Below, one piece after another: positions 4,523 to 9,383 of a stretch of 64,000 nt of DNA; position 1 is the stretch's first letter, and each line of letters starts with the position of its first letter. The notes below the pieces were generated by a model. It searched no databases. It was not told the DNA's origin and saw nothing but the letters and a program-made list of their open reading frames with translations. Position numbers and translations under genes: made by a program. This DNA is from Candidatus Nomurabacteria bacterium (GTDB lineage Bacteria; Patescibacteriota; Minisyncoccia; Phycocordibacterales; SBAW01): assembly GCA_943348815.1 (NCBI GenBank), contig CALQYT010000001.1, positions 12,488 through 76,487 of the forward strand, written 5' to 3'.

Positions 4523-4610
4523 GGAGGGATGGCAGAGTGGTCTATCGCACCGCACTTGAAATGCGGCGTACCGCAAGGTACCGGAGGTTCGAATCCTCCT
4601 CCCTCCGCCA
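4523..4610 (+). tRNA. tRNA-Ser (anticodon TGA), CCA encoded
   Basis: Acceptor stem GGAGGGA pairs with TCCCTCC. Anticodon stem CCGCA/TGCGG with loop CTTGAAA. Long variable arm CGTACCGCAAGGTAC is class II. T-arm CGGAG-GTTCGAATC-CTCCT; discriminator G followed by CCA. Confidence 0.9.
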
Positions 4611-6104
4611 AAATTCGGAATTCAAATTTCCGCCAAAAATATGGTCGGCGCGAAGCGCCGTCTGTTCTGCATTCCCCCCACAAAATCCTGATTCTGCAAG
4701 GATTCGCCACGCTCCGCGTGGCTCAAAAAAGACGGTTCGATCCTTAATTTGAAAGTTCGAACCGACTTTTTTGTACAAATGAATTTTTTCTTCATTTGTA
4801 CACTCGTTTGCCAATTCCACATTGAATTTCAAAAACTTTTCCGTAAGTTCGAACCGATTATTCGCTTTTTGCTCAAAAGCCGATAATTTCTCTTTGAGAA
4901 GCTGTTTTTGATTAACCAACGCACTTTTAGCGTCCCGATATTCCTCTAGTGAAAGTGCGTTCTCTAGGTAAGCGTTCATCAGCTTCTCAATCTTGGAATC
5001 CAAAAGAGAAATGTCTGCTTTTGTTTTGTCTGCAAAAAGCGTAGACGATTGGGCTTCCACCAATTTGTCTTTTTCGTTTTCCGCCAACATCCATTTAGCC
5101 CAATCGTCTGGCAAAGAAACTTTTTTGATTTCTTTTTGAATTTCGGAAGTGATGATTTCCTCACGAGTATATTTTTGTGAACAAGGATTTTTCCGCTTGG
5201 TACATCGTAAATAGTTATGACCTTTTTGTGTTTCGGTGGTAATAAAACATCCACATTCTCCACAACGGAAAAATCCTCTATACAAAAATGGTTTCAGTCC
5301 TTTCGGGTGAGGTTTAGATTTCCTCATCATCACTTCTTGAACAGAATCAAAAAGTTTCTTTGAAATAATCGGTTCGTGTTTGCCTTCGTGGATTTCACCG
5401 TTATACAACATTAAACCTGTGTATATCGGATTTTTCAAAAGTTTTTGATAATTCGACACCGCAAGTTCCTTTCCGCTTTTTCGTTTCAATCCAAGTTCGT
5501 TAAATTTGTCACGGAGCTGTCTCAAAGTGAAAGACCCAGACGAATATGCCTCAAATGTTTTCTTGATTAAAGGTGCGATACTTTCATCAACGACAATTTT
5601 CCCGCCCTCGTTTATATATCCGAGTGGAGACATTTGAGGCCATATACCGTCTTTCACTTTGTTTCTTTTTCCACGCTTGATATTCTCCGACAAATTGTCC
5701 ACATAATACTTGGATTGCGAAAAAGCGATTGAGAGCATGAATTTGCCTTGCGGTGTCGGATCACACCAGAAAGTTGGAAATTTTAGCTCGGCAATTTTTC
5801 CCGTATCGAGCAAATATATTATCTTTCCACCATCAACACTATTTCTCGCTAACCTATCGGGATGCCACGCTAAAATTCCGCTTGCCTCATTTTGCTCGAT
5901 ACGAAGAAGCATTTCATTAAATACTGGCCGACCCGGAACTTTAGCAGTTTGTTTTTCAACGAAGATATCTACAACTTCAATATTCTCTTTGAGGGCGAGA
6001 GATTTTAATTCGGCCAGTTGGTCTGAAATGCTTCTAACTTGCCGATCTTCAGTATCGGTAGATTTTCTTGTATATATGAAAAACTTTCTGGTGTGATTAT
6101 TCAT
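4542..6104 (-). CDS. large serine recombinase (resolvase/integrase family) with zinc-ribbon domain
   Basis: N-terminal FFIYTRKSTDTEDRQ...SISDQ is a serine-recombinase catalytic motif. Followed by a recombinase domain, a CGECGC...C zinc ribbon and a coiled-coil. The reading frame has no stop before running through IR-A into the tRNA, so the true C-terminus is uncertain. Confidence 0.85.
   Translation of the reverse strand: MNNHTRKFFIYTRKSTDTEDRQVRSISDQLAELKSLALKENIEVVDIFVEKQTAKVPGRPVFNEMLLRIEQNEASGILAWHPDRLARNSVDGGKIIYLLDTGKIAELKFPTFWCDPTPQGKFMLSIAFSQSKYYVDNLSENIKRGKRNKVKDGIWPQMSPLGYINEGGKIVVDESIAPLIKKTFEAYSSGSFTLRQLRDKFNELGLKRKSGKELAVSNYQKLLKNPIYTGLMLYNGEIHEGKHEPIISKKLFDSVQEVMMRKSKPHPKGLKPFLYRGFFRCGECGCFITTETQKGHNYLRCTKRKNPCSQKYTREEIITSEIQKEIKKVSLPDDWAKWMLAENEKDKLVEAQSSTLFADKTKADISLLDSKIEKLMNAYLENALSLEEYRDAKSALVNQKQLLKEKLSAFEQKANNRFELTEKFLKFNVELANECTNEEKIHLYKKVGSNFQIKDRTVFFEPRGAWRILAESGFCGGNAEQTALRADHIFGGNLNSEFWRREEDSNLRYLAVRRISSAVR
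4605..4724. repeat. inverted repeat A (120 bp, perfect partner at 6126..6245)
   Basis: The reverse complement of 4605..4724 is identical to 6126..6245 by hand alignment. Its first 6 nt (CCGCCA) are the 3' end of tRNA-Ser. Confidence 0.85.
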
Positions 6105-6125
6105 AGAATTGTATTGGCAAACGAG

Positions 6126-6245
6126 GAGCCACGCGGAGCGTGGCGAATCCTTGCAGAATCAGGATTTTGTGGGGGGAATGCAGAACAGACGGCGCTTCGC
6201 GCCGACCATATTTTTGGCGGAAATTTGAATTCCGAATTTTGGCGG
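6126..6245. repeat. inverted repeat B (partner of A)
   Basis: Identical to the reverse complement of 4605..4724. Confidence 0.85.
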
Positions 6246-6429
6246 TGTTTGTTGGACAAAGTTCGAAACTATTTCGAGCAGAATCCAAATGATTAAAGCG
6301 GACTCGGCAGGGCGAAACAATTTGTCTGGGGGAAAGGATTCGCCCTGCCTCGGCTGATTTCCCGCCCGCAGGAAGGGTCTGGGGAGGAATGCGGGCGGGT
6401 TTCGGATTCGCCAAATTCTTTTTTCGCCA
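6241..6429. repeat. inverted repeat C (189 bp, partner at 8252..8440, 1 mismatch)
   Basis: The reverse complement of 8252..8440 matches with a single A/G mismatch. It shares the GGCGG core with IR-B and contains internal hairpins such as CCCGCCCGCA...TGCGGGCGGG. Confidence 0.85.
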
Positions 6430-8245: not shown

Positions 8246-8251
8246 GGAATA

Positions 8252-8440
8252 TGGCGAAAAAAGAATTTGGCGAATCCGAAACCCGCCCGCATTCCTCCCC
8301 AGACCCCTCCTGCGGGCGGGAAATCAGCCGAGGCAGGGCGAATCCTTTCCCCCAGACAAATTGTTTCGCCCTGCCGAGTCCGCTTTAATCATTTGGATTC
8401 TGCTCGAAATAGTTTCGAACTTTGTCCAACAAACACCGCC
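8252..8440. repeat. inverted repeat D (partner of C)
   Basis: Reverse complement of 6241..6429 with 1 mismatch. Ends in the CCGCC core. Confidence 0.85.
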
Positions 8441-8450
8441 TGAAGACTTT

Positions 8451-9383
8451 TTATGTTCGCTCAGCGTTTTTAGACCGCAGGCAAAGAACTGTCCAAAGGG
8501 CAAAAGACAATGCTTCGGGCGGGTAGTGCAACTGCCTTTCCCACACTTTGGCATGGCCCGGTATCTTAAATTCGTGAGTAAGATACGACTGTCTCGAACT
8601 CTTACTCTCCAACTTTGCCGAACGAGGGGCAGAGTCGACAAAGGCTAAGACCTGGGCATTGTCTACACTGATTTTTTGGGCATCAAAATTTTGTCTCAAC
8701 ACACTTTCTGTTATCAAACATATCTTAATAAAGTACGGGAGTATGAATTTTATATACTCAGCATGACCAACTACATCCCTCCTTTCTATTTCTTTTTTAG
8801 ATTCATTGAAAAGGTCGGACTTCGATCGCACGACCCCGTCGGGAAAGAGTGTGTTGTTTCTGAACCGTTCAACCTCGGCAATGAGTTCCTCGAACTTTTC
8901 CACATGAAAACCCTCCAATTTACTCCTCTGAAAGCCATTCTCAACAATTTTCGCAAGCGAATTAATGATATATGCCAGAGGCGTTGCTTCGTCATCTGTG
9001 ATATGAAACAGCCTACCTCCATAAAATGCACTTTCTATACACCTGGTCGCGCGATCGATAAACTGATAATTTGACTCGGGAATTTGCTTTGGGTTCTTAC
9101 GCCCGTGATACCCAAAATCGTAGAGAACGTGGCCGACCCCTTTCATGGCTGCCGGATCAGGGTTGTGCATGCCTGCCAGCTGCGTGAAAAAAGACTCTAA
9201 TGCTTGAGGCGTCAGATTCTTTTTAACTTTTTCTGATTGTTCTAAGAGGAGAATCTCAAATTTCTTAGCAGCTTCTAGGCGTTCATTTCTCGGCACTCCC
9301 GATAACTCTGCGGCTTTTGCAAATGCACGGTATGCTCCTATTTTTGGATGTTTTTCGTTATTCATGTACTGGCTTTCGCTCAT
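8451..9383 (-). CDS. hypothetical protein
   Basis: Long ORF with no recognisable motif. Starts MSESQY... and is translationally coupled to the upstream Tat-signal gene. Confidence 0.45.
   Translation of the reverse strand: MSESQYMNNEKHPKIGAYRAFAKAAELSGVPRNERLEAAKKFEILLLEQSEKVKKNLTPQALESFFTQLAGMHNPDPAAMKGVGHVLYDFGYHGRKNPKQIPESNYQFIDRATRCIESAFYGGRLFHITDDEATPLAYIINSLAKIVENGFQRSKLEGFHVEKFEELIAEVERFRNNTLFPDGVVRSKSDLFNESKKEIERRDVVGHAEYIKFILPYFIKICLITESVLRQNFDAQKISVDNAQVLAFVDSAPRSAKLESKSSRQSYLTHEFKIPGHAKVWERQLHYPPEALSFALWTVLCLRSKNAERT

Follow-up and report, generated by a model that had tools for sequence, protein, structure and literature searches.

A large serine recombinase element at tRNA-Ser genes of Patescibacteria with an inverted internal copy of its putative attachment site

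Layout of the element

The window analysed here is a 64-kb stretch (64,000 nucleotides) of a Candidatus Nomurabacteria contig (GenBank assembly GCA_943348815.1, contig CALQYT010000001.1), and all coordinates follow its numbering. One copy of an integrated element of 3.8 kb (4605–8440) lies at the 3′ end of its tRNA-Ser(UGA) gene (4523..4610, plus strand; anticodon tga in ARAGORN, 54.6 bits against the Rfam tRNA model). The element is built around four repeat arms, which we name A to D. Arm A (4605..4724, plus strand) begins within the end of the tRNA gene with the core CCGCC (4605..4609, plus strand), of which CCGC (4605–4608) is the part universal in the family described below. Arm B (6126–6245) is the reverse complement of A, and arm C (6241–6429) is that of arm D (8252..8440, plus strand), which closes the element with the same core (8436–8440). 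B and C overlap in the core, reading GGCGG there (6241–6245), and the reverse complement of the whole central block (B + C; 6126..6429, plus strand) is a contiguous D-CCGCC-A unit. Both a repeat search and direct comparison gave 120 nt without a mismatch (120/120) for A and B, while C and D are complementary at 188 of 189 positions, the sole mismatch (A at 6374 versus 8307) lying inside a hairpin loop; both pairs and the core shared by all three junctions are exactly where the original prediction, made from the sequence of the window, had placed them. These are by far the longest repeats of the window, in which profile searches found no further arm copies.

The gene next to the tRNA encodes a large serine recombinase (LSR), hereafter the integrase, on the minus strand (4542..6104; 520 residues in the integrated state). 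Its conserved body occupies 4725–6104 (minus strand); from there the frame enters arm A, as had been noticed, and continues into the antisense strand of the tRNA gene, so that the last 20 residues (4545–4604, minus strand) come from antisense-tRNA codons, which stand in for the native tail. The integrase ATG is separated from arm B by a 21-nt spacer (6105..6125, minus strand), a conserved 5′ leader with TACAAT, whose antisense translation ...VLANE is conserved among small open reading frames (ORFs) called in other assemblies. Arm A contains two hairpins, one terminator-like in both directions (4646–4660) and one at its inner end (4706–4722). On the far side of the central core is the native integrase tail coding sequence (CLLDKVRNYFEQNPND followed by a stop; 6246..6296, plus strand), in frame with the linker encoded by arm B and not joined to the integrase body. 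It is followed by a terminator-like region (6297..6429, plus strand) of two G+C-rich hairpins (~6303–6352 and ~6361–6399) and a T-rich tract.

The central block fills nearly the whole intergenic region between the integrase and a divergent gene for a 68-residue helix-turn-helix (HTH) protein (6504..6710, plus strand; Pfam HTH_31, 1.4e-12), the first cargo gene. The variable cargo (6712..8245, plus strand) comprises two further genes, for a DUF4440/SnoaL-like protein (6712–7083, plus strand) and for a 385-residue protein with an HExxH motif and no family match (7088–8245, plus strand). Arm D carries a GTTCGAA motif 16 nt from its core and, on the minus strand, a second copy of the tail coding sequence and terminator hairpins. 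Beyond it lies host DNA (8441..8480, plus strand), here taken as the B′ flank downstream of the original attB, at which a host gene (8451–9383, minus strand) ends. The composition of the element is foreign to that of its host, with 35–38% G+C in its unique parts, 54% in the arms and 50–51% in the flanks, in line with the AT-rich cargo first noted. An Rfam search of 4400–8700 brought only the tRNA to its gathering score and no known RNA family in the arms; there were two sub-threshold matches with E-values up to 1, of which MIR5048 (20.5 bits, gathering score 160) touches the last two bases of arm A.

Soundness of the assembly

Assemblers tend to break at these repeats and many relatives sit at contig ends, which would fit a chimeric or mis-joined origin of the repeats, an option that the original prediction had left standing. 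Against it, the same layout recurs across more than 110 independent loci, in contigs of SPAdes, MEGAHIT and IDBA type from over 100 samples and in a closed 742-kb chromosome (L050; L-numbers denote fetched related loci), and an independent assembly of the same population (ENA ERZ27280317, contig k141_20646) has the identical arrangement at 99.96% identity over 10.3 kb. The artefact explanation is thereby refuted, and we give it a negligible probability. The single mismatch between C and D limits exact repeats to 133 nt, below the k of 141 in the name of the ENA contig, and the cargo orientation in that contig should rest on spanning k-mers. The only differences between the window and the ENA contig over the 10.3 kb are three substitutions and one 1-nt indel at 4114–4181, grouped around the starts of RuvX and of a GIY-YIG ORF, just upstream of the tRNA-Ser gene.

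Three contigs ending inside D arms (L002, L085 and L086) were considered as evidence of inversion and ruled out; their end positions would follow from an earlier k-mer stage (assuming k = 121) together with the C/D mismatch at 6374.

Attachment sites

Comparison of the 21 fully bounded loci (window included) revealed that A and D overlap by CCGC in 20, and in these CCGC is the only sequence common to all three junctions. The exception, L027, has no overlap, and its central copy reads CGGGC. CCGC corresponds to the last two acceptor-stem bases, the discriminator G and C74 of the tRNA, which is left intact by the insertion, its final CCA being supplied by the element. No motif is shared by the attR flanks of the 21 loci; the host B′ sequence is not conserved. 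In 110 loci the GTTCGAA motif of the tRNA T-loop lies 11 nt from CCGC; in arm D the distance is 16 nt, as seen in 124 loci. This difference matches the 5-bp shift of LSR sites described by Rutherford et al., in which the zinc-ribbon-domain motif stands 5 bp further out in attP than in attB (PMC3783163). Core and motif shift agree with the proposed topology, in which the three sites appear to behave as LSR attL, inverted intact attP and attR, with arm A as the P′ arm of attP (at attL) and arm D as its P arm (at attR). The B half-site of attB probably consists of the tRNA T-loop, the 3′ strand of the acceptor stem, the discriminator and C74.

Movement of the element would then be a conservative attP × attB recombination with a 2-bp crossover within CCGC. 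Recognition of attB would depend on the tRNA half-site alone, and attL would thus be reusable as attB; the empty site would be tRNA-Ser directly joined to TGAAGACTTTTTATG, the sequence from 8441 onward. Outward PCR for the junction of an excised circle would be confounded, since the D-core-A junction already exists inside the element as B + C.

An integrase frame that spans attP

The integrase has the domains of an LSR in Pfam (Resolvase PF00239, 9.8e-20, residues 9–154; Recombinase PF07508, 7.5e-15; Zn_ribbon_recom PF13408, 3.8e-07) and a serine motif of the YxRxS type (IYTRKST in the translation). Its zinc-ribbon cysteines, CGECGC...C...C, are invariant in 110 homologues, and PDB similarity to solved LSRs is confined to the N-terminal domain. 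By these features it appears to be a bona fide LSR. An AlphaFold2 model of the natural full-length integrase was poor overall (mean pLDDT 48), leaving only local features usable and no basis for a fold search. It predicts two long antiparallel helices (333–380 and 386–433, pLDDT 70–85) as the coiled-coil insert, a low-confidence linker (461–493, pLDDT 23–31) and a helix at residues 494–512 (pLDDT ~80).

The linker of about 40 residues (461–500) is encoded by the minus strand of arm A. In canonical loci the ORF runs through the arm (...EPRGAW..SGF.GGN..ALRAD...FWR) into the antisense tRNA (RRGRDSN...) and stops at varying positions, often two or three codons beyond the core. In the central copy the frame reading A′ and then D′ is open in most of about 65 translated loci and ends 16–19 codons past the core, with the tail consensus C[LV]LD[KE]VRx[YF]F[EG]xNP[NDQ]D... 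before the stop. Among 117 unique central copies the tail motif is in register in 102, and the first stop falls at codon 57–60 in 103. Nucleotide diversity over tail codons 49–56 is 0.147, 0.158 and 0.398 at the three codon positions, with F, N and P invariant, and this excess at third positions points to selection on the tail peptide. The 40 arm-A codons have no such periodicity (0.196/0.197/0.231). The first 50–57 nt of arm D thus encode the conserved C-terminal helix, and the remainder is the hairpin terminator. A second integrase lineage, 41% identical and located at tRNA-Ala (L037), has a homologous tail, DILNVARTHFERNC, followed by a stop. We therefore read the D·A unit as what is probably the 3′ end of the integrase gene, comprising linker, crossover core, C-terminal helix and terminator. 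Since the native frame spans attP, integration would split the gene from its tail and terminator and leave it reading into the antisense tRNA.

The L037 integrase belongs to a second element (L037:7632–11062) beside one at tRNA-Ser. It too has nested inverted repeats (arm pairs of 154 and 132 nt) and adjoins the 3′ end of tRNA-Ala(ggc), with the core CCAC and the same +5 motif shift; its cargo is a 447-residue membrane protein, and its tail remains hypothetical.

Tails encoded by D also occur in database integrases, namely in 24 of 120 fragments and in about 16 of 120 full-length proteins. We rejected the idea that these come from excised circles or flipped segments: seven of eight fetched contigs have non-identical arms or a heterologous neighbouring D, and the eighth (L173) contains no more than 42 nt of its upstream arm, all matching. 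A resident integrase reading into the D arm of a newcomer would explain most tailed integrase proteins in databases. A small ORF of linker plus tail in the central copy of the window (~6114–6296, plus strand) may be a real gene, but it has only non-ATG starts and no clear ribosome-binding site; equivalent ORFs of 60–114 residues are called by some pipelines elsewhere (P0058, P0106, P0111; ...LANE-EPRGAW...NPND).

A family spread across Patescibacteria

Relatives were sought with the 460-residue integrase body. There are 361 in species-representative (one genome per species) contigs and at least 561 in metagenome contigs, and 7,794 protein clusters match the body at E ≤ 1e-30. The best matches are 82–96% identical and spread over many Patescibacteria lineages, among them Uhrbacteria, Saccharibacteria, Paceibacterota, Levyibacteriota and Kaiserbacteria. 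A viral collection contained no integrase relatives, giving no link to known phages. The window element is thus one member of a family of integrative elements of 2–7 kb that is very abundant in Patescibacteria, also called the candidate phyla radiation (CPR).

Of 160 fetched loci, 91 have the layout D·A-integrase-A′·tRNA-Ser and another 19 are cut upstream by a contig end; in full, the arrangement is [tRNA-Ser·A]-integrase-[A′·D′]-HTH and cargo-[D·flank]. In different genomes the element occupies the same position at tRNA-Ser genes, with unrelated flanks, in line with the site-specific, tRNA-Ser-associated integrative element that had been suggested. At least 125 of the 160 loci carry the central attP copy upstream of the integrase. 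All five tRNA-Ser isoacceptors serve as targets (anticodon gga 36, tga 28, gct 23, cga 21, act 7), and truncated tRNA-Ser genes account for most of the 17 loci scored as “other”. Rare alternative insertion sites are tRNA-Asp(gtc), next to one copy (L102:4335–4411), and a recurrent non-tRNA sequence that three copies (L031, L081 and L152) abut downstream of the integrase. That sequence, ...CTTACAA.G.TTG....CGGGTAC....CC.A.TAC.C-CGC, possibly represents the end of a further RNA gene.

Orientation and tandem arrays

Orientations were counted in consensus assemblies and so compare populations with one another. The 3′ end of the integrase points towards the tRNA in approximately 95% of informative loci (~110 of ~120). 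For the cargo, 46 modules were compared by profile search. In 41 of them the HTH gene adjoins the central attP and is divergent from the integrase gene, one module (L006) is inverted and four lack the HTH gene, which gives a canonical orientation in 41 of 42 loci. The shufflon or phase switch of the original prediction is not borne out by these biases, although inverted repeats with crossover sites do flank both segments; within a population, inversion may occur as a rare and strongly biased event. The cargo modules of L006 and L035 are 98.5% identical and in opposite orientation, with integrase modules that are 85% identical, from which it follows that modules reassort and that at least one cargo inversion has occurred.

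Other layouts are few. In L057, L071, L147 and L172 the tRNA lies at the 5′ end of the integrase and an intact attP at its 3′ end; in L045, L052 and L079 the integrase lies between two convergent tRNA-Ser genes; and an attP is found on both sides of the integrase in L035, L088, L119, L170/171 and L174. Most of these odd loci have arms that are only 78–97% identical, or a neighbouring D arm of another type. Judged from such arms, tandem insertion or recombination between copies appears to explain the non-canonical layouts better than switching does. Elements stack in tandem at the tRNA in L139, L109, L040 and L170. As many as three integrase/cargo units follow one another head to tail at a single tRNA-Ser gene, each with inverted-repeat pairs of its own; the order in L139:200–7216 is R,G,R,G,R,tRNA-Ser, and it holds four such pairs in succession. 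In L109 a piece of ~170 nt with a tRNA-Ser 3′ fragment lies between two units. Arrays of this kind arise as further elements insert between the tRNA and the resident element. They suggest a second use of attL, with its retained tRNA half-site, as attB.

Concerted evolution and hairpins of the arms

Of 113 within-locus comparisons of the two A arms, 58 show no difference and 84 reach 98% identity or more (median 100%), whereas the median identity between loci is 78.8%. The copies of an arm therefore evolve in concert, which bears out the ongoing homogenization that had been proposed. Gene conversion between inverted copies would be the simplest cause, since a crossover at the core cannot homogenize arms. 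It had also been reasoned that relatives with the same arrangement in fixed form, without repeat identity, would refute the original prediction; the arrangement is indeed fixed, but the identity of the repeats is kept.

Both hairpins of arm A are conserved among 100 arms. The stem of the second is invariant, and that of the first has compensatory changes in three pairs (GC 56, AU 28, CG 15) and a single break; this first hairpin may stand in for the tRNA gene's own terminator, which the insertion would have displaced. Across 41 D arms the two hairpins of arm D are preserved, with compensatory changes in a few pairs; joined to the T tract, they resemble a terminator for the integrase gene that spans attP. 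One locus (L060:5664–5863, alignment columns 145–163) differs from every other copy in the second hairpin of arm D, where the loop alone has been turned into its reverse complement between 10-bp stem arms; the sole C/D mismatch of the window (6374/8307) lies in the same loop.

Proposed mechanism and rival explanations

The best explanation, to which we assign a probability of about 0.6, is a small LSR-driven integrative element whose integrase gene is split at attP by integration and which keeps a spare, inverted attP. Integrase (Int) made from the free form would carry the tail helix and insert the element at the 3′ end of tRNA-Ser. The integrated gene, without tail and terminator and running antisense into a strongly transcribed tRNA gene, would yield an Int whose activity falls or changes, making the reaction self-limiting. 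The central attP would store an intact integrase 3′ end along with attP, and one rare inversion across the A arms, by RecA acting on the 120-bp identity or by Int acting on attL × attP, would rejoin the integrase to tail and terminator and so re-arm the element. Because the central copy is the integrase 3′ end, inverted and on the far side of the gene, such rebuilding of the full gene is the single most likely purpose of the central attP, if only a tentative one with the odds against it. Somewhat more doubtful is the wider proposal of a new kind of serine-integrase control, in which the gene is split on integration, the helix is lost and the spare 3′ end, kept beside the promoter, sets the direction and timing of recombination without a directionality factor. 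This would proceed by one of three routes: inversion of the integrase segment, a small protein of spare linker plus helix acting in trans, or Int acting at the spare attP.

Several observations weigh against the split-integrase explanation. To our knowledge, classical LSRs do not recombine attL with attP. Two equal attP sites on a circle should give about 50% inverted cargo, and inverted cargo was seen in 1 of 42 loci; the near absence of integration via the central attP is poorly explained by every model. Among canonical units with identical arms no flipped integrase segment was seen, and the arms of L057, L071, L147 and L172, in which the integrase is turned around, are mostly diverged. No excised circle was found, the contigs in which the integrase reads into a D arm being tandem arrays or hybrids. 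A homology search with the 310-residue host flank protein recovered no empty attB for the host of the window; exact copies of this protein occur only in assemblies of the same study, and there is one distant homologue. About 10% of central copies are without an in-frame tail (e.g. L170), the structure model is poor overall, and no conserved candidate for a directionality factor other than the HTH protein was found in the element.

The absence of a separate conserved directionality factor and of flipped canonical units would be accommodated if the central attP were an architectural or regulatory binding site for Int rather than a substrate for inversion, either as an operator in the divergent integrase/HTH promoter region or as an accessory site in cis. 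In the latter variant, a bound Int dimer would engage the B-type subunits of attL and attR and replace a directionality factor in excision, with gene conversion keeping the long arms matched to the real sites. The position of the copy in the intergenic region, almost all of which it occupies, and its completeness, with both half-sites in fixed orientation at more than 110 loci, favour such a role; however, about 50 bp would suffice for binding, where there are 310 bp with tail coding sequence, terminator and sharp boundaries, and we know of no precedent for an LSR that uses an accessory attP. We regard it as about as likely as the re-arming inversion, with the odds likewise against it.

A freely switching shufflon or phase switch, in which the recombinase would keep turning over the integrase segment by A × B and the cargo segment by C × D recombination, has in its favour the perfect inverted repeats around both segments, the inverted cargo of L006 relative to L035 and the four loci whose integrase is turned around relative to the tRNA. 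A balanced switch should nevertheless give a mixed consensus across independent populations instead of ~95% and 41 of 42 canonical orientations, attR has no B-type half-site for pairing with attP, and the non-identical arms of the odd loci are those expected of arrays or recombination between copies, all of which makes switching improbable. We are just as sceptical of two side-by-side elements with terminal inverted repeats, an integrase module with 120-bp A ends and a non-autonomous cargo module with 190-bp D ends that is mobilized in trans. Their independence is suggested by the reassortment seen in L006 and L035, by the alternation R,G,R,G,R in arrays and by the integrase module standing alone between two tRNA-Ser genes in L045, L052 and L079. 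It is contradicted by a reading frame that stays conserved from A into D, with selection at the protein level on the tail that D encodes, by the nearly constant direct joining of integrase and D·A, and by A and D acting, with the expected motif spacing, as P′ and P halves of a single LSR attP.

A further idea, that a single strand folds back so that the A/A′ and D′/D stems rebuild a duplex attP, was rejected, as an incoming single strand could not express the integrase. The attP hairpin of CTXphi is a precedent for a folded single-strand attP.

Comparison with known systems

The inversion systems Hin/hix, Gin and Cin and the shufflons use small invertases, 26-bp sites and an enhancer, and both orientations are common. 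The present element resembles Hin/hix-type switches in that a serine recombinase gene is flanked by inverted repeats holding its sites, but its recombinase is an LSR, its arms of 120–300 bp are halves of attP and its orientation is nearly fixed. With the LSRs of A118/LI, phiC31, Bxb1, SPbeta (SprA) and Tn4451 (TnpX) it shares the domain order of resolvase, recombinase and then zinc ribbon with an inserted coiled coil, and simple att sites with a short common core and an attP motif 5 bp further out than in attB (PMC3783163). Unlike these, it keeps a complete inverted attP inside the integrated element, its integrase frame spans attP so that integration would remove the C-terminal helix and terminator, only the tRNA half-site of its attB is conserved, and it has no recognizable directionality factor.

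In the mycobacteriophages BPs and Brujita, attP lies within an ORF, and the free and integrated forms encode different C-termini that alter protein activity (PMC3694055). The logic of this integration-dependent immunity, in which integration itself changes a protein C-terminus, is the same, but there a repressor gene is split, a degradation tag is lost and the integrase is a tyrosine recombinase, whereas here the serine integrase itself would be split and a spare inverted 3′ end is retained. Furuta et al. (2010) described restriction-modification complexes that have long inverted repeats on both sides or are associated with integrases at tRNA genes (PMC2853133). These are alike in cargo, in long inverted repeats and in an integrase at a tRNA gene; they differ in being either tyrosine-integrase units with direct tRNA repeats or transposon-like with short target duplications, whereas the inverted repeats described here are the P arms of a serine-integrase attP. 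Tandem islands that target tRNA genes, including tycheposon-like ones, likewise regenerate the tRNA 3′ end and insert beside residents to form arrays; the present element differs from them in a tRNA identity of only 4–11 bp, in the LSR and in the internal inverted attP.

Full-text literature searches returned no description of this element. LSRs and integrative islands are known as kinds, and the family itself is apparently undescribed. We found no precedent for an inverted attP that is kept inside the element in two integrase lineages of 41% identity, nor for an integrase frame spanning attP or the loss of a selected C-terminal helix on integration. Patescibacteria have tiny genomes and few recognized mobile elements. 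Present in hundreds of their genomes and in thousands of integrase clusters, and moving between phyla at 90–96% protein identity, the family is probably a major route of gene flow and tRNA-linked rearrangement in the CPR. It would be a natural case of a recombinase whose own C-terminus records whether the DNA is integrated or free, and the conserved attL/inverted attP/attR architecture of the family is unexplained by current serine-integrase rules. Serine integrases are widely used as genome-engineering tools, and a self-truncating one with a single conserved attB half-site and possibly no directionality factor would have practical interest.

Cargo genes

The three cargo genes of the window agree with the HTH, NTF2-like and HExxH proteins first proposed. 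The HTH protein resembles the controller (C) proteins of restriction-modification systems (PADLOC Control_protein, 1.3e-15), and the exact sequence of the 385-residue HExxH protein is found only in assemblies of the same study. Across the family (109 proteins from 46 modules) the commonest cargo families are DNA methyltransferases and the restriction endonucleases Mrr, TdeIII, HpaII, DpnII and GmrSD. Also among them are ResIII, HNH, AAA_13 and a Schlafen-type helicase, along with some transport or cell-wall genes, and L087 carries AbiEii with HEPN_AbiU2. By annotation, the family cargo is a controller-type HTH gene followed by variable genes, mostly for restriction-modification or defence. Beside the family member in L087 (L087:4632–9916) are another LSR, a terminase large subunit and two N6/N4 methyltransferases, a region that looks like a prophage remnant.

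Other features of the window

Elsewhere in the window, a tRNA-like fragment lies about 80 nt from an intact tRNA-Arg(tct) (1497–1566 and 1639–1710). It is 83% identical over 36 nt to part of that tRNA, resembles the tRNA-Arg genes at 10485–10774, and could be either a decayed tRNA or what is left of an att repeat from another element. Dispersed repeats of 34–46 nt, rich in GTATCAAGT/ACTTGATAC units, occur in both orientations at three loci of the window (13330–13425, 26506–26545, 26950–26995 and 34374–34450).

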